From IMG/VR virus record IMGVR_UViG_2778261381_000013, positions 1-9,554 of that record: a DNA stretch of 9,554 nt; one strand, given 5' to 3'. The translations under genes were made by a program, and so were the position numbers. Of the stretch, positions 1 to 9,554 are shown one piece after another. The stretch is from a virus (Duplodnaviria > Heunggongvirae > Uroviricota > Caudoviricetes). The notes under the pieces are model-generated. The model was not told the origin of the DNA. It made no database searches and saw only the letters and a program-made list of their open reading frames with translations. Position 1 is the stretch's first letter. The number at the start of each line of letters is the position of its first letter.

Positions 1-1089
1 ATGACCAACATTCCCGACGGTATGGACTGGGGCGTCATTGATGGCAACCTGATAAACATCGCAGTTGGTCCGAGTGATGATTCCGGTACGGGGCGCTCAA
101 TGCATGTATGGCGCAGCACTGTAAGTAAAGCCAACTACCGCTTTTTTATGGTGCGCATTTCAGGAAATCCGGGAAGCCGCACGATCACAACAAGACGAGT
201 ACCAATCATTGACGAAGCCCAGACATGGGGCGCGAAACAGACATTCAGTGCTGGCCTTTCTGGTGAACTGTCCGGCAATGCGGCGACAGCAACAAAGCTG
301 AAAACAGCCCGTAAAATTAATAACGTTTCGTTTGATGGAACATCAGATATTAACCTGACGCCGAAAAATATTGGTGCATTTGCTTCAGGAAAAACAGGAG
401 ACACTGTTGCGAATGATAAAGCCGTTGGATGGAACTGGAGTAGCGGAGCCTATAACGCAACTACTGGTGGGGCATCAACGTTAATTCTTCATTTTAATAT
501 CGGTGAAGGAAGTTGTCCCGCCGCCCAGTTTCGCGTTAATTATAAGAACGGTGGTATTTTTTATCGTTCTGCTCGTGACGGTTACGGATTCGAGGCTGAC
601 TGGTCTGAGTTTTATACCACAACGCGAAAACCTACAGCGGGAGATGTCGGTGCACTGCCGTTATCTGGTGGTCAATTGAATGGTGCTCTGGGTATAGGAA
701 CATCCAGTGCTCTTGGCGGTAATTCGATTGTTTTGGGTGATAATGACACGGGCTTTAAACAAAATGGTGATGGTAATCTGGATGTTTATGCTAATAGCGT
801 CCATGTTATGCGCTTTGTCTCCGGAAGCGTTCAAAGTAATAAAACCATAAATATTACGGGGCGTGTTAATCCCTCGGATTACGGTAACTTTGATTCCCGC
901 TATGTGAGAGATGTCAGACTTGGCACACGTGTTGTCCAGACCATGCAGAAAGGGGTGATGTATGAGAAAGCAGGGCACGTAATTACCGGTCTTGGTATTG
1001 TCGGTGAAGTCGATGGTGATGACCCCGCAGTATTCAGACCAATACAAAAATACATCAATGGCACATGGTATAACGTCGCACAGGTGTAA
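1..1089 (+). CDS. H: Tail fiber protein, C-terminal ~362 aa; the ORF is open to the window edge so the real start is upstream
   Basis: Long + strand ORF ending TAA 1087-1089, directly followed by the tail fiber assembly gene (ATG 1093). Gly/Ser/Asn/Thr-rich translation typical of phage fibers. Position immediately before G matches P2 gene order. Family call from memory of P2-like fibers, not a search. Confidence 0.8.
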   Translation: MTNIPDGMDWGVIDGNLINIAVGPSDDSGTGRSMHVWRSTVSKANYRFFMVRISGNPGSRTITTRRVPIIDEAQTWGAKQTFSAGLSGELSGNAATATKLKTARKINNVSFDGTSDINLTPKNIGAFASGKTGDTVANDKAVGWNWSSGAYNATTGGASTLILHFNIGEGSCPAAQFRVNYKNGGIFYRSARDGYGFEADWSEFYTTTRKPTAGDVGALPLSGGQLNGALGIGTSSALGGNSIVLGDNDTGFKQNGDGNLDVYANSVHVMRFVSGSVQSNKTINITGRVNPSDYGNFDSRYVRDVRLGTRVVQTMQKGVMYEKAGHVITGLGIVGEVDGDDPAVFRPIQKYINGTWYNVAQV

Positions 1090-1092
1090 TTT

Positions 1093-1620
1093 ATGCAGCA
1101 TTTAAAAAATATTACTGCGGGTAATCCAAAAACTGTTGCCCAATATCAACTGACAAAAAATTTTGATGTTATCTGGTTATGGTCCGAAGAGGGAAAAAAC
1201 TGGTATGAGGAAGTAAGTAATTTTCAGGAAGACACGATAAAGATTGTTTACGATGAGAATAATATAATTGTCGGCATCACCAGAGATGCTTCAACGCTCA
1301 ACCCTGAAGGTTTTAGCGTTGTCGAGGTTCCTGATATTACCGCCAACCGACGTGCTGATGACTCAGGTAAATGGATGTTTAAGGATGGTGCCGTGATTAA
1401 GCGGATTTATACGGCAGACGAACAGCAACAACAGGCAGAATCACAAAAGGCCGCGTTACTTTCCGAAGCGGAAAGCGTTATTCAGCCACTGGAGCGCGCT
1501 GTCAGGCTGAACATGGCAACAGATGAGGAGCGTAGCCGACTGGAAGCATGGGAACGCTACAGTGTTCTGGTCAGCCGTGTGGATCCTGCAAATCCTGAAT
1601 GGCCGGAAATGCCGCAATAA
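1093..1620 (+). CDS. G: Tail fiber assembly protein (chaperone), 175 aa
   Basis: ORF 4 nt after the H stop with AGGTG upstream as a Shine-Dalgarno site. Size and position after H match P2 gpG (175 aa, from memory). C-terminal acidic/Trp-rich tail ([11 protein letters not shown]) is typical of Tfa-type chaperones. Confidence 0.8.
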
Positions 1621-1670
1621 GTTGTATGAGCTGACATATCTATAGCACAGAGTAAAGCCTAATCTGACAG

Positions 1671-1694
1671 TCCGCTCTGTGCAAGGAGCGGACA
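1671..1694. terminator. GC-rich hairpin between convergent genes (G on +, AT-rich gene on -); possible bidirectional terminator
   Basis: Seen in sequence: GTCCGCTC (1671-1678) and GAGCGGAC (1687-1694) form a perfect 8-bp stem with an 8-nt loop, in the 151-bp gap between two convergent stops. No clean U-tract on either strand, so intrinsic-terminator function is uncertain. Confidence 0.3.
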
Positions 1695-1771
1695 TTACCT
1701 AACACATTGGTAACCTTCACAGATTTACGCGTTCTACATAGTTAGCATTGTATCTGATGAGTTATCATGTT

Positions 1772-2551
1772 TTAAAATATCCAACTGATAAATCCACCTG
1801 AATACTTTTCACTAATTTTGATTGCATAAAGATCATGAAGAGTTATAAATAAATCATTATCTTCTTTGAAAATTAACTCCTCATATTCTGCCATTATCAA
1901 ATTATGCTGTGTTGTTAGTTTAGATATGTTATCTATTTCACTGGCAAGCATGGATTTGTTTACATTGGTGTGTGGATTCATGGCAATATATTTCCGCATC
2001 AATGGAATTAGTTGTTCAGGGTCTATATTTTTTGCATTTTCCTTTGCTTTTTTTTGTCTTTCTGAATAGATGGAGTTAATTGTGTTAGTGTGTTTTTTCG
2101 CCAGCCTCTTAAACTCTGGATATGAACCAGTAACTAATGCAAGCTCTTCGTACTTAAGGAATAAATCGATATTGCATTTTTTTACCGTCATTTCAAGATC
2201 TTCAACTCTTTTTTTTAACTCTTCATTTGTTTTAATAAGAGACATCGGGAGAACTTCATAATGTTGTCCTAATTCTGAATCAGGGCTCATTGCCATATGT
2301 ACTATTTCATTATACATGAGCTGATAAGAAGCAGATAACTCTCCATACTTTAGAAATAGTTCATTATGTGAAGATGAACAAGAACTTTGTAATTTCATCA
2401 TTGGCCTAAAGTAATCCTTTATAAACTCCTCCTGAAGATCTTGGTCTTTTTTGTAGCTCTCTAGGATTCCAGCAAAAAGAAATGACCCTAAAGATATAGA
2501 GATTATGGATATTAGCAATTGACTAAGGAATGATTGTGTTTCATTACTCAT
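1772..2551 (-). CDS. Hypothetical membrane-anchored protein, 259 aa, AT-rich cargo gene at the G/FI (Z/fun) hotspot; candidate superinfection-exclusion or anti-phage protein
   Basis: Minus-strand ORF, ATG at 2551 with AAGGA 7 nt upstream on the - strand. Composition differs sharply from flanking tail genes (18 G+C in the 60 nt 1861-1920, i.e. 30%). N-terminal hydrophobic segment LLISIISISLGSFLFAGIL followed by KK, then a mostly charged, helix-prone body with an internal repeat LFLKYGEL / LFLKYEEL. No Walker, nuclease or other catalytic motif recognised. Same position and opposite orientation as the P2 Z/fun locus (established knowledge of P2 organisation). Confidence 0.7.
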   Translation of the reverse strand: MSNETQSFLSQLLISIISISLGSFLFAGILESYKKDQDLQEEFIKDYFRPMMKLQSSCSSSHNELFLKYGELSASYQLMYNEIVHMAMSPDSELGQHYEVLPMSLIKTNEELKKRVEDLEMTVKKCNIDLFLKYEELALVTGSYPEFKRLAKKHTNTINSIYSERQKKAKENAKNIDPEQLIPLMRKYIAMNPHTNVNKSMLASEIDNISKLTTQHNLIMAEYEELIFKEDNDLFITLHDLYAIKISEKYSGGFISWIF

Positions 2552-2810
2552 AAAACATCCTTAAAAAATAACACGAAAAGTGACTCCTGACAGGAAAGAA
2601 ACGACAGGTCGGAAACAAACTTAACTGATGAGTTAGCCGTAGTCCAGAACCTTGTTTGAACACTTAGTGTGACTGTTTGCATCTCAGGAATTTGTGCCAA
2701 TAATATTTGAATCCTTATAATTTATTTAAATCAAATTTAGTTACTCGCTCAAAGCAGGCTGTCAGATTTGATAGCGTTTGGGCTATGTAAACTGTCAGTC
2801 GGAAAATGAG

Positions 2811-2828
2811 TGTGTACAAATCAGGACA
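2811..2828 (+). promoter_or_regulatory. Candidate Ogr-dependent late promoter element (TGT-N12-ACA) for the FI operon
   Basis: Seen in sequence: TGT (2811-2813), 12 nt, ACA (2826-2828); the only TGT-N12-ACA in the 400-bp region upstream of FI. P2 late promoters carry this dyad centred near -55 (established knowledge), which would put the transcript start near 2875, about 75 nt before the FI ATG at 2952. No strong -10 hexamer found, as expected for an activator-dependent promoter. Confidence 0.4.
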
Positions 2829-2951
2829 GGCGAGCTGATTGCCCGCCTTTTCTTTATCTGTTGTTTCATCCACTGACCAGCCAGGTCAAATAGCGTCTCA
2901 TGCTCTGCACAACAGAAAATAGTTGCACCCATTAACCACGGAGTTAAACGG

Positions 2952-4142
2952 ATGAGTGACTATCATCATGGCGTGCAGGTGCTGGAGATTAACGACGGCA
3001 CCCGCGTCATTTCCACCGTATCCACTGCCATTGTCGGCATGGTCTGCACGGCCAGCGATGCGGATGCGGAAACCTTCCCCCTCAATAAACCGGTGCTGAT
3101 TACCAATGTGCAGAGCGCAATTGCAAAGGCCGGTAAAAAAGGCACGCTGGCGGCATCGTTACAGGCCATCGCTGACCAGTCAAAACCGGTCACCGTTGTC
3201 GTGCGTGTGGAAGACGGCACCGGCGAAGACGAGGAAACGAAACTTGCGCAGACCGTTTCCAATATCATCGGCACCACCGACGAAAACGGTCAGTACACCG
3301 GACTGAAAGCCCTGCTGGCGGCGGAGTCGGTAACCGGTGTTAAACCGCGCATTCTCGGTGTGCCGGGACTAGACACCAAAGAGGTTGCCGTCGCACTGGC
3401 ATCAGTCTGTCAGAAGCTGCGCGCTTTCGGGTATATCAGCGCATGGGGCTGTAAGACCATTTCCGAGGTGAAAGCCTACCGCCAGAATTTCAGCCAGCGT
3501 GAGCTGATGGTCATCTGGCCGGATTTCCTCGCATGGGATACGGTCGCCAGTACCACCGCCACCGCGTATGCCACCGCCCGTGCGCTGGGGCTGCGCGCTA
3601 AAATCGACCAGGAGCAGGGCTGGCATAAAACGCTGTCCAACGTCGGGGTGAACGGTGTTACCGGCATCAGCGCGTCCGTATTCTGGGATTTGCAGGAGTC
3701 CGGCACCGATGCTGACCTGCTTAACGAGTCAGGCGTCACAACGCTGATTCGGCGTGACGGTTTCCGCTTCTGGGGTAACCGTACCTGCTCTGATGACCCG
3801 CTGTTCCTCTTTGAAAACTACACCCGCACCGCGCAGGTGCTGGCCGACACGATGGCTGAGGCGCATATGTGGGCGGTGGACAAGCCCATCACCGCAACGC
3901 TGATTAGCGACATCGTTGACGGCATCAATGCCAAATTCCGAGAGCTGAAAACAAACGGCTATATCGTGGATGCGACCTGCTGGTTCAGCGAAGAATCCAA
4001 CGATGCGGAAACCCTCAAGGCCGGAAAACTGTATATCGACTACGACTATACACCGGTGCCTCCTCTTGAAAACCTGACCCTGCGCCAGCGTATTACCGAT
4101 AAATACCTGGCAAATCTGGTCACTTCGGTTAACAGCAATTAA
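2952..4142 (+). CDS. FI: Contractile tail sheath protein, 396 aa
   Basis: ORF with GGAG 9 nt upstream of the ATG; 396 aa, first gene after the variable region and directly before the tube gene, as in P2. N-terminus MSDYHHGVQVLEINDGTRVI matches my recollection of P2-family sheath proteins. Confidence 0.93.
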   Translation: MSDYHHGVQVLEINDGTRVISTVSTAIVGMVCTASDADAETFPLNKPVLITNVQSAIAKAGKKGTLAASLQAIADQSKPVTVVVRVEDGTGEDEETKLAQTVSNIIGTTDENGQYTGLKALLAAESVTGVKPRILGVPGLDTKEVAVALASVCQKLRAFGYISAWGCKTISEVKAYRQNFSQRELMVIWPDFLAWDTVASTTATAYATARALGLRAKIDQEQGWHKTLSNVGVNGVTGISASVFWDLQESGTDADLLNESGVTTLIRRDGFRFWGNRTCSDDPLFLFENYTRTAQVLADTMAEAHMWAVDKPITATLISDIVDGINAKFRELKTNGYIVDATCWFSEESNDAETLKAGKLYIDYDYTPVPPLENLTLRQRITDKYLANLVTSVNSN

Positions 4143-4154
4143 GGAGCCTGACCG

Positions 4155-4673
4155 ATGGCAATGCCGCGCAAACTCAAGTTAATGAACGTCTTTCTGAACG
4201 GCTACAGCTATCAGGGCGTTGCAAAGTCCGTCACGCTGCCAAAACTGACCCGTAAGCTCGAAAACTATCGCGGTGCGGGGATGAACGGCAGCGCACCGGT
4301 AGACCTCGGCCTTGATGACGATGCACTGTCAATGGAGTGGTCACTCGGGGGCTTCCCGGATTCGGTTATCTGGGAGCTTTACGCCGCAACCGGCGTGGAT
4401 GCCGTGCCGATTCGTTTTGCTGGTTCTTACCAGCGCGACGATACCGGCGAAACGGTGGCCGTCGAAGTGGTCATGCGTGGACGTCAGAAAGAAATCGACA
4501 CCGGCGAGGGTAAACAGGGAGAAGACACCGAGTCGAAAATCTCCGTGGTCTGCACCTATTTCCGGCTGACGATGGACGGTAAGGAGCTGGTCGAAATTGA
4601 CACCATCAACATGATTGAGAAGGTGAACGGCGTCGACCGGCTGGAGCAACACCGCCGCAATATCGGCCTGTGA
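4155..4673 (+). CDS. FII: Tail tube protein, 172 aa
   Basis: ORF 12 nt after the FI stop with a strong AAGGAG site (4142-4147). Size and position match P2 gpFII. Confidence 0.93.
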   Translation: MAMPRKLKLMNVFLNGYSYQGVAKSVTLPKLTRKLENYRGAGMNGSAPVDLGLDDDALSMEWSLGGFPDSVIWELYAATGVDAVPIRFAGSYQRDDTGETVAVEVVMRGRQKEIDTGEGKQGEDTESKISVVCTYFRLTMDGKELVEIDTINMIEKVNGVDRLEQHRRNIGL

Positions 4674-4680
4674 TTTTCAT

Positions 4681-4701
4681 CCGGTCAGCCTGGCTGACCG
4701 G
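4681..4701 (+). promoter_or_regulatory. GC-rich hairpin in the FII-E intergenic region; possible attenuator or mRNA-stability element
   Basis: Seen in sequence: CCGGTCAGC (4681-4689), CTG, GCTGACCGG (4693-4701), a 9-bp perfect stem with a 3-nt loop (or 8 bp with 5-nt loop), 8 nt after the FII stop. No U-tract follows, so not a canonical intrinsic terminator. Sits between high-copy (sheath, tube) and low-copy (E, T) genes. Confidence 0.35.
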
Positions 4702-4729
4702 TTAACCCCGATTCATAAGTGAGAAAACC

Positions 4730-5005
4730 ATGAACAAAGAAAATGTGATTACCCTGGACAATCCGGTCAAACGTGGTGAGCAGGTCATCGAACAGGTCAC
4801 GCTGATGAAACCCAATGCCGGGACGCTGCGCGGTGTCAGTCTGGCTGCGGTCGCAAACTCCGAAGTCGATGCACTGATTAAGGTGCTGCCGCGCATGACG
4901 GCACCGATGCTGACCGAGCAGGAGGTCGCCGCGCTGGAACTGCCTGACCTTGTGGCGCTGGCCGGTAAGGTGGTCGGTTTTTTGTCTCCGAACTCGGTGC
5001 AGTGA
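4730..5005 (+). CDS. E: Tail assembly chaperone gpE, 91 aa (zero-frame product)
   Basis: ORF ending TGA 5003-5005; 91 aa, located between the tube and tape-measure genes. Sequence MNKENVITLDNPVKRGEQVIEQV... matches my recollection of P2 gpE. Confidence 0.88.
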   Translation: MNKENVITLDNPVKRGEQVIEQVTLMKPNAGTLRGVSLAAVANSEVDALIKVLPRMTAPMLTEQEVAALELPDLVALAGKVVGFLSPNSVQ

Positions 5006-5157
5006 CGTTTCCGAAAAATCTGTCGGTCGATGACCTGATGGCAGATGTGGCAGTGATATTTCACTGGCCGCCATCAGAACTGTATCCCATGAGCCTGACC
5101 GAACTCATCACATGGCGCGAAAAGGCGCTCCGGCGAAGCGGAAACACGAATGAGTAA
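4730..5157 (+). CDS. E': Tail assembly chaperone E+E', 142 aa, made by -1 programmed ribosomal frameshift at 4978-4984
   Basis: Hand translation: slippery TTTTTTG at 4978-4984 inside E; shifting to -1 and resuming at GTC 4984 gives an open frame of 57 codons (VSELGAVTFPKNLSVDDLMADVAVIFHWPPSELYPMSLTELITWREKALRRSGNTNE) ending TAA 5155-5157, which overlaps the ATG of T (5150). 85 + 57 = 142 aa, matching P2 E+E' (established knowledge). The -1 frame has no start codon of its own. Confidence 0.8.
4978..4984 (+). other. Slippery heptamer TTTTTTG for the E/E' -1 frameshift
   Basis: Seen in sequence: T run 4978-4983 followed by G 4984, read as G GTT TTT TGT in the E frame region (codons TTT 4979-4981, TTG 4982-4984). 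Confidence 0.75.
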
Positions 5158-7597
5158 CAATGTAAAATTACAGGTATTGCTCAGGGCTGTTGACCAGGCA
5201 TCCCGCCCGTTTAAATCCATCCGCACAGCGAGCAAATCGCTGTCGGGGGATATCCGGGAAACACAAAAATCACTGCGCGAGCTGAACGGTCACGCATCCC
5301 GTATTGAGGGATTTCGCAAGACCAGTGCACAGCTCGCCGTGACTGGTCATGCACTTGAAAAGGCACGGCAGGAAGCCGCAGCTCTGGCTGTCCAGTTTAA
5401 AAATACTGAACGACCGACAAATGCACAGGCAAAGGCAATGGAAGCCGCGCGTAAAAATGCGTCTGAGTTACAAGCGAAATATAACAGCCTGAGATTGTCG
5501 GTACAGCGCCAGCGTCAGGAATTGAGTCAGGCGGGTATTAATACCCGCAATCTTGCACATGATGAGCAGGGACTGAAAAACCGTATCAGTGAAACCACCG
5601 CACAGCTTAACCGTCAGCGTGACGCGCTGGCGCGTGTCAGTGCGCAACAGGCAAAACTTAACGCAGTAAAACAGCGTTATCAGGCCGGAAAGGAACTGGC
5701 CGGAAATATGGCCTCAGTGGGCGCTGCCGGTGTGGGGATTGCGGCGGCGGGAACGATGGCCGGAGTTAAGTTGCTGATGCCCGGTTATGAGTTTGCGCAG
5801 AAAAACTCAGAATTGCAGGCCGTGCTAGGTGTGGCAAAAGACTCCGCCGAAATGGCTGCACTACGCAAGCAGGCGCGCCAGCTCGGTGACAACACCGCCG
5901 CCTCAGCGGATGATGCGGCCGGTGCACAGATTATCATTGCGAAAGCGGGTGGAGATGCTGCGGCTATTCAGGCGGCAACGCCGGTCACGCTGAATATGGC
6001 TCTGGCGAATCAGCGGTCGATGGAAGAAAACGCACAACTGTTGCTGGGGACTAAGGCATCCTTTCAACTGTCAAATGATGATGTCAGCCATGTGGGCGAC
6101 GTGTTGTCGGCAACGATGAATAAGTCGGCAGCTGATTTTCAGGGACTCAGTGATGCACTGACTTACCTCGGGCCGGTTGCGAGGACGGCAGGTGTAAGTC
6201 TTGAGCAGGCAGCGGCCATGACAGGTGTGCTGCATGACAATAACATCAGGGGGTCAATGGCGGGGACGGGTAGCAGTGCCGTTGTCACCCGATTACAGGC
6301 TCCGACAGGGAAAGCATGGGAAGCACTCAAAGAGCTTGGCGTTAAAACCTCGGACAAAAAGGGAAATATGCGTCCGTTGTTCACCATTCTGAAAGAGATT
6401 CAGGCCAGCTTTGATAAACACAAGCTGGGAACGTCTCAGAAGGGGGAATACCTTAAAACCATTTTTGGTGAGGAAGCCCTGAAATCAGCGAACGTTTTAC
6501 TGGCAGCGGCAGCAAGCGGAAAACTGGACACGCTGACCGCCACGCTGAAAGCCTCGGACGGTAAAACGGAAGAGCTGGTTAAAATCATGCAGGATAACCT
6601 CGGCGGCGACTTTAAGGAGTTTCAGTCCGCTTATGAGGCGGTGGGGACTGACCTGTTTGACCAGCAGGAAGGCGCACTGCGTAAGCTCACGCAGACGGCC
6701 ACAAAGTATGTGTTAAAACTCGACGGCTGGATCCAGAAAAACAAATCACTGGCGTCAACCATCGGCCTCATTGTCGGTGGCGCACTGGCGCTGACTGGCA
6801 TCATCGGTGCCATTGGTCTTGTCGCCTGGCCGATTATCACCGGCATCAATGCCATCATCGCGGCAGCAGGCGCAATGGGGGCAATCTTCACGACGGTTGG
6901 CAGTGCCGTTATGACGGCCATCGGGGCGATTAGCTGGCCGGTTATGGCCGTGGTGGCCGCCATTGTCGCCGGGGCGTTGCTTATCCGTAAATACTGGGAG
7001 CCTGTCAGCGCATTCTTTGGTGGTGTGGTTGAAGGGCTGAAAGCGGCATTTGCGCCGGTGGGGGAACTGTTCACGCCACTTAAACCGGTTTTTGACTGGC
7101 TGGGTGAAAAGTTACAGGCCGCGTGGCAGTGGTTTAAAAAACTGATTGCCCCGGTCAAAGCCACCCAGGACACCCTGAACCGTTGCCGTGACACGGGCGT
7201 CATGTTCGGGCAGGCACTGGCTGACGCGCTGATGCTGCCGCTTAATGCGTTCAACAAACTGCGCAGCGGTATTGACTGGGTACTGGAAAAACTCGGTGTT
7301 ATCAACAAAGAGTCAGATACACTTGACCAGACCGCCGCCAGAACTCAAGCCGCCACGTATGGCAGCGGTGGTTATATTCCGGCGACCAGCTCTTATGCAG
7401 GCTATCAGGCTTATCAGCCGGTCACGGCACCGGCTGGCCGCTCTTATGTGGACCAGAGTAAAAACGAATATCACATCAGTCTGACGGGCGGTACTGCGCC
7501 GGGGACTCAGCTCGACCGCCAGTTACAGGATGCGCTCGAAAAATACGAGCGGGATAAACGTGCGCGCGCCCGTGCCAGCATGATGCATGACGGTTAA
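5150..7597 (+). CDS. T: Tail tape measure protein, 815 aa
   Basis: Longest ORF in the window. Ala/Gln-rich helical N-terminal half, long hydrophobic Gly/Ala/Ile-rich segment around residues 530-615, position after the E/E' frameshift pair. Size matches P2 gpT. ATG overlaps the E' stop. Confidence 0.93.
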   Translation: MSNNVKLQVLLRAVDQASRPFKSIRTASKSLSGDIRETQKSLRELNGHASRIEGFRKTSAQLAVTGHALEKARQEAAALAVQFKNTERPTNAQAKAMEAARKNASELQAKYNSLRLSVQRQRQELSQAGINTRNLAHDEQGLKNRISETTAQLNRQRDALARVSAQQAKLNAVKQRYQAGKELAGNMASVGAAGVGIAAAGTMAGVKLLMPGYEFAQKNSELQAVLGVAKDSAEMAALRKQARQLGDNTAASADDAAGAQIIIAKAGGDAAAIQAATPVTLNMALANQRSMEENAQLLLGTKASFQLSNDDVSHVGDVLSATMNKSAADFQGLSDALTYLGPVARTAGVSLEQAAAMTGVLHDNNIRGSMAGTGSSAVVTRLQAPTGKAWEALKELGVKTSDKKGNMRPLFTILKEIQASFDKHKLGTSQKGEYLKTIFGEEALKSANVLLAAAASGKLDTLTATLKASDGKTEELVKIMQDNLGGDFKEFQSAYEAVGTDLFDQQEGALRKLTQTATKYVLKLDGWIQKNKSLASTIGLIVGGALALTGIIGAIGLVAWPIITGINAIIAAAGAMGAIFTTVGSAVMTAIGAISWPVMAVVAAIVAGALLIRKYWEPVSAFFGGVVEGLKAAFAPVGELFTPLKPVFDWLGEKLQAAWQWFKKLIAPVKATQDTLNRCRDTGVMFGQALADALMLPLNAFNKLRSGIDWVLEKLGVINKESDTLDQTAARTQAATYGSGGYIPATSSYAGYQAYQPVTAPAGRSYVDQSKNEYHISLTGGTAPGTQLDRQLQDALEKYERDKRARARASMMHDG

Positions 7598-7611
7598 GGA
7601 GGTGACGAAAA

Positions 7612-8091
7612 ATGATGCTCGCGTTAGGTATGTTTGTTTTTATGCGCCAGACGCTGCCACACCAGACCATGCAGCGTGAATCAGATTATCGCTGGCCGTC
7701 AAATTCCCGTATCGGTAAACGGGATGCCTTTCAGTTTCTCGGTGTGGGTGAGGAAAACATGACGCTTGCCGGTGTGCTTTATCCCGAACTGACCGGCGGC
7801 AAGCTGACGATGACCACGCTCAGGCTGATGGCAGAGGAAGGTCGGGCGTGGCCGTTGCTGGATGGCACCGGCATGATTTACGGCATGTATGTCATCAGCA
7901 GGGTGAGTGAAACAGGGAGTATTTTCTTTGCAGATGGCACACCCCGGAAAATTGATTTTACGCTGTCGCTCACCCGCGTTGATGAATCACTGGCCGCGCT
8001 TTATGGCGATATCGGTAAACAGGCGGAATCGCTCATCGGTAAGGCCGGCAGTATGGCGACCAGATTCACGGGTATGACGGGGGCGGGATAA
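7612..8091 (+). CDS. U: Tail protein gpU, 159 aa
   Basis: ORF with a strong AAGGAGGTGA site ending 7 nt before the ATG; stop TAA (8089-8091) overlaps the D start (ATG 8091-8093). Position and size match P2 gpU. Confidence 0.88.
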   Translation: MMLALGMFVFMRQTLPHQTMQRESDYRWPSNSRIGKRDAFQFLGVGEENMTLAGVLYPELTGGKLTMTTLRLMAEEGRAWPLLDGTGMIYGMYVISRVSETGSIFFADGTPRKIDFTLSLTRVDESLAALYGDIGKQAESLIGKAGSMATRFTGMTGAG

Positions 8092-9254
8092 TGCTGGATG
8101 CGCTGACATTTGATGCAGGCAGTACACTGACGCCGGATTACATGCTGATGCTCGACAGCAGGGATATTACCGGCAATATCAGCGATCGTCTGATGAGCAT
8201 GACCCTGACGGATAACCGGGGCTTTGAGGCTGACCAGCTTGATATTGAACTGAACGATGCCGACGGGCAGGTCGGGCTGCCGGTTCGTGGCGCTGTCCTG
8301 ACGGTGTATATCGGCTGGAAAGGTTTTGCCCTGGTATGCAAAGGGAAATTCACCGTTGATGAGGTTGAACACCGGGGCGCACCGGATGTGGTCACCATCC
8401 GCGCCCGGAGTGCAGATTTTCGCGGGACGCTCAATTCCCGCCGTGAAGGCTCCTGGCATGACACCACGCTCGGTGCGATTGTTGAGGCGATAGCTTCCCG
8501 TAACAGGCTGGAAGCCAGTGTCGCGCCGTCACTGGCAGGAATTAAAATCCCACACATCGACCAGTCGCAGGAGTCTGATGCGAAATTCCTGACCCGTCTT
8601 GCAGAACGCAACGGCGGTGAGGTCTCGGTAAAAATGGGAAAACTGCTGTTTCTCAAAGCGGGGCAGGGGGTGACGGCCAGCGGTAAAAAAATCCCGCAGA
8701 TTACCATCACCCGCAGTGACGGCGACCGCCATCATTTTGCGATTGCTGACCGTGGAGCCTATACCGGCGTAACAGCAAAGTGGTTACACACCAAAGACCC
8801 GAAACCGCAAAAGCAGAAGGTAAAACTGAAACGCAAAAAGAAAGAAAAACACCTGCGCGCACTGGAGCACCCGAAAGCGAAACCGGTCAGGCAGAAGAAA
8901 GCGCCTAAAGTACCGGAAGCGCGCGAAGGTGAATACATGGCCGGTGAGGCTGATAACGTTTTTGCCCTGACCACGGTATATGCCACGAAAGCGCAGGCCA
9001 TGCGCGCCGCTCAGGCGAAGTGGGATAAACTGCAACGGGGCGTAGCGGAGTTCTCCATCAGCCTGGCTACCGGTCGTGCTGATATTTACACGGAAACACC
9101 GGTTAAAGTGTCAGGCTTTAAGCGCGTCATAGACGAGCAGGACTGGACAATCACTAAGGTGGCACATTTTCTGAATAATAGCGGCTTCACGACGTCCTTA
9201 GAGCTTGAGGTCAGGCTTTCTGATGTGGAGTACGGAACCGAAGATGATGAGTGA
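8091..9254 (+). CDS. D: Tail protein gpD (late control D family), 387 aa
   Basis: ORF translationally coupled to U through ATAATG; 387 aa; last structural gene before ogr, as in P2. Contains an internal Lys-rich segment. Confidence 0.88.
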   Translation: MLDALTFDAGSTLTPDYMLMLDSRDITGNISDRLMSMTLTDNRGFEADQLDIELNDADGQVGLPVRGAVLTVYIGWKGFALVCKGKFTVDEVEHRGAPDVVTIRARSADFRGTLNSRREGSWHDTTLGAIVEAIASRNRLEASVAPSLAGIKIPHIDQSQESDAKFLTRLAERNGGEVSVKMGKLLFLKAGQGVTASGKKIPQITITRSDGDRHHFAIADRGAYTGVTAKWLHTKDPKPQKQKVKLKRKKKEKHLRALEHPKAKPVRQKKAPKVPEAREGEYMAGEADNVFALTTVYATKAQAMRAAQAKWDKLQRGVAEFSISLATGRADIYTETPVKVSGFKRVIDEQDWTITKVAHFLNNSGFTTSLELEVRLSDVEYGTEDDE

Positions 9255-9272
9255 TGTTTTTATTTTATCTGT

Positions 9273-9301
9273 TTGTTTTGTAAGGATAAATTAACTAAAA
9301 T
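9273..9301 (+). promoter_or_regulatory. Candidate sigma70 promoter for ogr (TTGTTT-N17-TAAAAT)
   Basis: Seen in sequence: TTGTTT 9273-9278, 17-nt spacer, TAAAAT 9296-9301, in the AT-rich gap after the D stop. Followed by GGAAGAGG (9320-9327) and the ogr ATG at 9336. Hexamers picked by eye, no scoring matrix. Confidence 0.3.
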
Positions 9302-9335
9302 GGCACCATCAACAAAACCGGAAGAGGTGCTCGCG

Positions 9336-9554
9336 ATGTTTCATTGTCCTTTATGCCAGCATGCCGCACATGCGCGTACAAGTCGCTATATCACTGACAC
9401 GACAAAAGAGCGTTATCACCAGTGTCAGAACGTGAATTGCAGCGCCACGTTCATCACTTATGAGTCGGTACAGCGATACATCGTGAAGCCGGGAGAAGTC
9501 CACGCCGTAAGGCCGCACCCGTTGCCGTCAGGGCAGCAAATTATGTGGATGTAA
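9336..9554 (+). CDS. ogr: Late gene transcriptional activator Ogr, zinc-finger protein, 72 aa
   Basis: Translation from ATG 9336 (MFHCPLCQHAAHARTSRYITDTTKERYHQCQNVNCSATF...QQIMWM) has the Cys-X2-Cys-X22-Cys-X4-Cys zinc finger and matches my recollection of P2 Ogr (72 aa). GGAAGAGG sits about 8 nt upstream. The ORF-track start at 9273 is a TTG with no Shine-Dalgarno site and lies in the putative promoter, so the shorter ORF is preferred. Confidence 0.88.
   Translation: MFHCPLCQHAAHARTSRYITDTTKERYHQCQNVNCSATFITYESVQRYIVKPGEVHAVRPHPLPSGQQIMWM

Follow-up and report, generated by a model that had tools for sequence, protein, structure and literature searches.

The DNA analysed here (the window) is the 9,554-nucleotide stretch spanning positions 1 to 9,554 of the IMG/VR virus record IMGVR_UViG_2778261381_000013, and the element under study is a single open reading frame (ORF) encoding a protein of 259 amino acids (aa). 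The window corresponds to the tail region of a P2-like (Peduovirus) prophage, in which genes H and G are followed by a slot and then by FI, FII, E/E', T, U, D and the start of ogr. The 1.33-kb gap between G and FI is the classical Z/fun slot of P2, and the only gene in the 1.05-kb, 32% GC cassette lying within it is the ORF in question, as an earlier note on this DNA had proposed when it described a single-gene occupant of that slot. The cassette was acquired horizontally and, with the 259-aa gene as its only cargo, is what is called a 'moron'. The slot lies between the two arms of an inverted repeat that is also annotated in the GenBank records of the P2-EC Z-region; because P2 itself shares the repeat, it is part of the slot and does not come with the cargo. 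The entire slot (1621-2951) is 100% identical to that of Escherichia coli 09-02E and shows 99.5% DNA identity to that of Yersinia phage L-413C. Its flanks could be matched in 1020 of 5426 complete E. coli genomes, with the cargo carrying the 259-aa gene present in just 13 of them. Other occupants are Fun(Z) in P2, an Mrr-type restriction endonuclease (in P2-EC67 and several E. coli genomes), a DUF6615 protein and various hypothetical proteins. Two papers depict the locus as a hotspot for cargo of mixed purpose, some of it defence-like (bioRxiv 10.1101/2024.10.15.618418; bioRxiv 10.64898/2026.02.27.708500), and a defence-like moron is thus to be expected there. The hotspot tested by Rousset et al. 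(2022, PMC9122126) was the other one of P2, not the Z/fun slot. The coordinates of the features discussed in this work are collected in the table.

Features of the 259-aa gene and of the slot that carries it, as positions in the window
Feature	Position	Strand	Remarks
ORF, 259 aa	1772..2551 (stop codon included)	-	ATG at 2549-2551
Shine-Dalgarno sequence AAGGA	2558..2562	-	6 nt 5' of ATG; read from the sequence
Transmembrane helix LLISIISISLGSFLFAGIL, residues 12-30	2462..2518	-	only strongly hydrophobic segment
Cys58 codon	2378..2380	-	conserved in 92% of family representatives
Cys126 codon	2174..2176	-	conserved in 90% of representatives
Motif copy 1, LFLKYGEL, residues 65-72	2336..2359	-	
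Motif copy 2, LFLKYEEL, residues 130-137	2141..2164	-	within the family-wide YEEL-A-L-x-T-G block (E135, L137, G142)
Foreign cargo cassette	1697..2743		about 1047 bp, AT-rich; P2 homology stops at 1696 and restarts at 2744
Inverted repeat, left arm	1661..1692		brackets the slot; 'left inverted repeat' in the P2-EC67 record
Inverted repeat, right arm	2744..2768		start of the conserved P2 flank towards FI
Gene H	1-1089		first gene of the window order
Tail fibre assembly gene G	1093..1620	+	left border of the slot
Tail sheath gene FI	2952..4142	+	right border of the slot

The ORF had been correctly delimited in the earlier note, which left its strand unstated (it is the minus strand) and rightly remarked on its good Shine-Dalgarno sequence and its richness in AT (31.7% GC, versus 53% in the remaining window). 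It is a real gene, practically beyond doubt. Stop-rich, AT-rich DNA seldom stays open over 780 nt by accident, so an ORF of this length is more than a chance event. In addition, 45 homologue clusters (at 90% identity) were found, nearly all of them exactly 259 aa long, and comparison with eight homologues revealed purifying selection (dN/dS of about 0.08-0.3). The sequence is not new: the protein is identical to the hypothetical protein WP_077727464.1 of E. coli 09-02E, and the gene is essentially the same as that of L-413Cp20 of phage L-413C (NP_839869.1, 99.2% protein identity), which is annotated only as hypothetical. The protein also matches PHROG 7729, a family of unknown function (E=3.2e-125). 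This profile spans residues 79-259 only, having been built from calls that start at Met79, and the same start is found in some database entries (for example P0066, of 182 aa; 1772-2317 in the window). A start at Met79 entails the loss of the membrane helix, of Cys58 and of the first motif copy. Conservation of the N-terminus in about 100 homologues supports the start of the 259-aa form as the right one.

The cassette gene is transcribed in the direction opposite to that of the late tail genes, an orientation that would fit expression in the lysogen. The left arm of the inverted repeat partly coincides with a GC-rich hairpin of 8 bp (1670-1693) located 3' of both the G stop codon on the plus strand and the ORF stop codon on the minus strand. 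No terminator was recognized after the ORF stop codon, since the hairpin has no U-tract and shuffled sequences fold as well as this region does (z = -0.97).

The protein contains a single hydrophobic segment, at residues 12-30, whose 19-residue Kyte-Doolittle mean reaches 2.36 (0.59 for the next best window) and which is directly followed by E-S-Y-K-K, in agreement with the N-terminal hydrophobic helix and the ensuing KK of the earlier description. This single helix is kept in about 100 family members, its residues G22, S23, F26 and G28 are conserved across the family, and a juxtamembrane E31-x-Y33-K34 motif comes next. The protein is therefore very probably anchored in the membrane. The remainder had been considered helix-prone, and the AlphaFold2 model, built from a 29-sequence alignment (mean predicted local distance difference test score, pLDDT, of 79; predicted template modelling score, pTM, of 0.71), is indeed all helical: helices at 8-88, 100-141, 144-172, 178-190 and 196-249 make up a generic elongated bundle, with lower confidence in the N-terminal 40 residues and in the last 8. 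The motif LFLKY(G/E)EL does occur twice, as had been noted. The first copy lies close to where it had been placed, but the second is found 12 residues away from the proposed position of about 118-126. The two copies lie in stretches that resemble each other over about 26 residues (hhalign E=9e-6 in a single comparison; a Smith-Waterman score equalled in 4 of 1000 shuffles), and no further pairs of similar segments were detected within the protein. An extensive internal repeat architecture was thus rejected, and the former description of 'internal helical repeats' was an overstatement for what is one short motif pair. Besides the positions already mentioned, P50, E135, L137, G142, E224 and G253 are among the best conserved in the family.

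The extreme C-terminus (residues 253-259, at 1775-1795; GGFISWIF) deserves a comment of its own. It consists of the conserved glycine and an aromatic and hydrophobic tail (G-F-x-S-W-x-F-COOH), modelled with low pLDDT, whose counterpart in distant members reads R-F-x-R-G-F. Conceivably, an even number of long helical legs would bring this tail back to the membrane-proximal end of the bundle, where it could touch the membrane or act as a C-terminal recognition tag.

The absence of a catalytic signature, also remarked upon earlier, was borne out by searches of Pfam, PADLOC and NCBIfam. Pfam returned no match, and nothing in NCBIfam rose above the cutoff, the single line being a hemerythrin domain (E=0.094, 12.8 bits versus a cutoff of 51.75). 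Comparison of the sequence profile with the Protein Data Bank (PDB) gave only chance matches (E of 0.9 and 1.6). Two candidate folds were rejected: a hemerythrin-like four-helix bundle, whose score is below the cutoff and which calls for His/Glu/Asp iron ligands, only His62 and His85 being conserved, solely in the close subfamily, and an alpha-pore-forming toxin of the ClyA type (Foldseek E=0.06, TM-score 0.24, no Pfam match). As far as these comparisons reach, the family is an uncharacterised one, without a match among known defence or exclusion families.

An exhaustive profile search of 1.84 billion protein representatives at E <= 0.001 defined a family of 91 clusters, 40 of them at E <= 1e-30, nearly all of 250-300 aa and matching from end to end. 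The hosts are chiefly Gammaproteobacteria, with some Betaproteobacteria and one metagenome bin of Nitrospirota. P2-like phages (those of E. coli, L-413C and six IMG/VR contigs) hold only copies that are at least 98% identical. The closest homologue outside E. coli (84% identity; L040:6001-6780) is a moron of a lambdoid prophage of Enterobacter bugandensis, inserted between O/P-like replication genes and a DinI/RusA/DUF968 region and followed by cargo encoding a flavin reductase, a LysR protein and an acetyltransferase. Another copy is carried by a conjugative Burkholderia plasmid. The family gene has 31-35% GC, against 40-53% in the flanking DNA of its hosts (loci L018, L019, L020, L021, L022, L023, L006 and L010), and judging from these values the low-GC composition moves along with the gene. 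No conserved partner gene was found: neighbours differ at every locus examined and the family gene is always solitary, and the gene would therefore act alone or with host factors.

The neighbourhoods of the homologues provide the main argument concerning function. In 7 of about 18 distinct loci outside P2 a known or candidate defence gene lies no more than two genes away, a raw count uncorrected for background. A type I restriction-modification system is immediately upstream of the family gene at two loci, at one of which the Vibrio sagamiensis copy is directly 3' of hsdM-hsdS-hsdR. A Pectobacterium copy precedes a gene for a nuclease-effector-like protein (1e-23). The Thiodiazotropha copy is near an AbiE toxin-antitoxin system, that of Phytobacter faces the PADLOC candidate PDC-S06 (E=0), and that of Stutzerimonas ends a small integrase/NikA island, just 3' of a dCTP-deaminase defence gene (E=2.7e-176). 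In Vibrio sp. HI00D65 (L029:5114-8750), a gene for Zot, a protein of filamentous phages, is followed by one for a DUF2971 protein corresponding to PDC-S31 (1e-34) and then by the family member, an order suggestive of an inovirus-like element with defence-type cargo at its end. The 259-aa protein shares with PDC-S06, PDC-S31, the dCTP deaminase, AbiE and type I restriction-modification systems a common habitat, namely the cargo ends of prophages and integrative islands, as well as a solitary condition and a low GC content; unlike these neighbouring PADLOC candidates and systems, it matches no PADLOC model. Taken together, the neighbourhoods make an anti-phage role of some kind probable, and to this extent the defence function advanced in the earlier note is favoured; the label 'defence factor' itself is still inferred from gene neighbourhood.

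A first piece of information about the orientation of the protein in the membrane came from two metagenomic relatives, P0121 and P0135 (512 and 515 aa), in which a Peptidase_C14 caspase domain (residues 2-219, E=2.4e-17) is followed by a lysine-rich linker, the membrane helix and the family domain. One of them, P0121 (L037:8001-9539; L038:3593-5131), is encoded directly 3' of a type I restriction-modification locus in which a gene for an AAA_13 ATPase is also present. When a second word-indexed search was started from distant members, it retrieved only six proteins, one of which was the second caspase fusion. Since a single membrane helix is present in the fusions, the caspase and the bundle should lie on opposite sides of the membrane, and, because neither fusion has a signal peptide and the caspase is consequently cytoplasmic, the bundle should be periplasmic. 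About 12 representatives carry N-terminal tails of some 30-50 residues with 3-13 lysines or arginines, although some of these tails may be due to miscalled start codons.

No columns of the family are more conserved than those of Cys58 and Cys126. Both are present in 55 representatives and a single one in two, while four mutually divergent members (12-24% identical to each other) have lost them together, with F, Y, A or T at one position plus Y at the other. The two positions covary (Fisher exact p=1e-6, uncorrected for phylogeny), and, judging from the limits of the helices, the two residues would fall within one turn of the same level of the antiparallel hairpin formed by helices 8-88 and 100-141. 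A contacting pair without any other conserved ligand is most simply explained as a disulfide, which would suit the periplasm, and the formation of such a bond is probable. Altogether, it seems fairly likely that the N-terminus is cytoplasmic and the helical body periplasmic. The cytoplasmic body implied by the earlier note agrees poorly with the caspase fusions, the basic N-terminal tails of distant members or the covarying cysteines.

The opposite topology, in which the short N-terminus would be outside, the body cytoplasmic and the cysteines part of a redox or metal site, the protein acting on the cytoplasmic face upon, for instance, incoming DNA or a membrane-bound host factor, is somewhat unlikely. 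It agrees with the simple positive-inside count, which speaks against a periplasmic body: no lysine or arginine precedes the helix, whereas 3 come after it in the E. coli subfamily and 3-4 occur within the next 15 residues in the enterobacterial subfamily. The post-helix lysines, however, belong to the family-wide E-x-Y-K motif and are balanced by an equal number of acidic residues, so the KK that the earlier note placed after the helix gives no clean signal of topology. A metal site might be suspected from His62, invariant in the close subfamily and situated four residues past Cys58, and from the very weak hemerythrin match mentioned above, but His62 is not kept in distant members and no third or fourth ligand is conserved. 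Moreover, the cysteines are exchanged pairwise for aromatic or hydrophobic residues, as in a structural contact, and the fusions, together with the long basic tails, call for a cytoplasmic N-terminus.

These observations can be integrated in a model, our best reading although a tentative one, in which the protein is an envelope-level anti-phage factor that blocks genome entry by means of its periplasmic bundle. According to it, the prophage-encoded protein would protect the lysogen from other phages at the envelope: the tethered bundle would bind either the ejection machinery of the incoming phage or the inner-membrane conduit used by that machinery, and the binding would stop genome entry, resulting in exclusion and not in the killing of the cell. 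In the rare relatives fused to a caspase, this module would do the sensing outside for a death protease located in the cytoplasm. A bolder version, which we regard as a rather distant prospect, is that the family domain is a periplasmic receptor of an early envelope event of phage attack (ejection or tape-measure proteins, or their channel) that blocks entry on its own, the caspase-fused forms being one-protein transmembrane immune receptors that would perceive the invader outside the cytoplasm and unleash a death protease within it. If correct, bacterial immunity would comprise a new family that senses from the outside in, distributed on P2-like and lambdoid prophages, a Zot-associated region and integrative islands.

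Membrane-tethered superinfection-exclusion proteins acting outside the cytoplasm include Sp and Imm of T4, gp15 of HK97, lactococcal Sie2009 and Ltp of Streptococcus phage TP-J34. Typically, each is the product of a small single phage or prophage gene, with a membrane anchor, a largely helical extracytoplasmic body, no enzymatic domain and a proposed block of genome entry. The 259-aa protein is likewise membrane-anchored and belongs to a family encoded by prophages (P2-like, lambdoid and Zot-associated contexts). By analogy, its function would most resemble that of these proteins, yet every homology-based comparison, against PHROG families of known function and against BFVD, failed to relate them. 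Most of the family, moreover, is located outside prophages, and it extends over several proteobacterial classes, a distribution not usually seen in exclusion proteins of narrow range. A second likeness is to the four-helix-bundle (4HB) periplasmic sensor domains of histidine kinases and chemoreceptors (TorS, NarQ, QseE, Tar/Tsr and PilJ), where an N-terminal membrane helix leads into an elongated antiparallel helical bundle, and whose position is that of the family module in the caspase fusions. However, no Pfam match supports this relationship, the 259-aa form lacks a second membrane helix and a cytoplasmic signalling domain, and the likeness is generic to helical bundles, designed proteins scoring higher.

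Several results weigh against an envelope-level exclusion factor. None of the 5027 models of PADLOC-DB 2.0.0 and none of the PHROG families of known function, exclusion proteins included, was matched even at E <= 10, and Foldseek searches of the PDB and BFVD returned nothing at E <= 0.001, only generic helical bundles. A literature search by accessions, the supplements of the DefensePredictor paper included, gave no match, all database names being 'hypothetical', and no protection phenotype for any family member was found in the literature. About one third of the homologue loci have only housekeeping or uninformative neighbours, and the Z/fun slot carries non-defence cargo too. The expression signals are a weakness as well: no convincing sigma-70 promoter was identified on the minus strand upstream of the ORF, the best candidate being TTTAAA-19-TATTAT, located 148 nt upstream. 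Finally, the contact between Cys58 and Cys126 was deduced solely from covariation and helix register.

The main rival to an entry block is abortive infection through membrane damage. In such a scenario, an inner-membrane protein that is idle in the uninfected cell would oligomerise on infection, through its membrane helix or its bundle, and would depolarise or permeabilise the membrane, so that the cell dies before phage release. The membrane helix is indeed among the best-conserved parts of the protein, with small residues (G22, S23 and G28) that suit helix-helix packing, and the family gene is present in chromosomal defence islands as well as in prophages. In addition, the caspase fusion ties the module to a death-type effector, and Rousset et al. 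(2022, PMC9122126) point to the belief that, in known systems, transmembrane proteins act as suicide effectors. Nevertheless, the protein has one membrane helix only, without a separate sensor domain or a partner gene, and the structural matches to pore-formers are far from significant. Furthermore, in the fusions the caspase and the bundle lie across the membrane from each other, which makes the bundle look more like an input than an effector. We thus consider that abortive infection is unlikely as the overall explanation and that, were the role one of defence, the odds would lean slightly towards the entry block.

A function in the envelope unrelated to phages is rather unlikely, although it has arguments in its favor. 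The protein might be an orphan immunity factor against a toxin acting in the periplasm (a type VI effector or a bacteriocin), or else a factor for stress or fitness. Immunity to periplasmic toxins typically relies on an anchored protein that faces the periplasm. The Pectobacterium copy that precedes the nuclease-effector-like gene is itself preceded by Rhs/PAAR toxin and immunity genes (Imm26, DUF4303); a second one is part of an integrase island, with type VI genes (Hcp/VgrG) next to it, and it is because of these Rhs and type VI neighbourhoods that the possibility retains some weight. The Teredinibacter copy is found among small cassette-like genes, DUF4304 included, and both the mixed-purpose nature of the Z/fun slot and the several loci devoid of defence neighbours point in the same direction. 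Yet no cognate toxin gene is conserved alongside, the direct neighbours across unrelated taxa include restriction-modification, AbiE, dCTP deaminase, PDC-S06 and PDC-S31, and a caspase fusion is hard to square with a passive immunity protein.

The earlier note had also left undecided whether the ORF was Fun(Z) itself, with which a P2 lysogen blocks phage T5, or an unrelated occupant of the same slot. Fun(Z) shares the locus between G and FI, the inverted repeats, the condition of a single non-essential gene presumably expressed in the lysogen as cargo, and the lack of a Pfam match, but it is encoded on the opposite strand, it has 299 aa instead of 259, and neither BLASTP against this P2 Z-region protein (E=1.9 over 11 residues) nor profile comparison (hhalign probability of 0.4%) disclosed any similarity, so that the prospect of the ORF being Fun(Z) or a diverged orthologue is negligible and the second alternative, on sequence grounds, almost certainly holds.

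The Z/fun slot has been known for decades, and most of its occupants, Fun(Z) included, are uncharacterised. The family described here is small, widely mobile, unstudied and of simple architecture, the gene in the window measuring 780 bp. If it proves protective, it would add a single-gene, envelope-acting system to a field in which few mechanisms are understood. The relatives fused to a caspase would be a natural system in which to learn how a signal from the periplasm reaches an effector in the cytoplasm. These fusions support the reading of the module as a periplasmic sensor and lend the gene a real upside. If it does not protect, the gene would be one more prophage moron, and the main value of the analysis would be a better annotation, now with the start of the full 259-aa form, a membrane anchor, a probable disulfide and the distinction from Fun(Z).

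Some minor observations concern the window at large, and a scan of all of it against Rfam gave no match. The best sigma-70-like site of the region (GTGCCA-16-TATAAT, 10 of 12 positions; 2694-2721) lies on the plus strand inside the cargo and is directed at FI, hence away from the cargo ORF; promoter-like sites are no commoner in this region than in shuffled sequences. The sole TGT-N12-ACA dyad of the window is found at 2811-2828 on the plus strand, in the conserved flank, 124-141 nt 5' of the FI start. This is the position that we take to be the expected place of an Ogr-dependent P2 late promoter, and the count of such dyads is not significant in itself (2.6 expected by chance). Downstream, the frames of E and E' overlap (4730-5005 and 5002-5157; span 4730-5157), E+E' being the product of a -1 frameshift in the L-413C record, which is an ordinary feature of P2.

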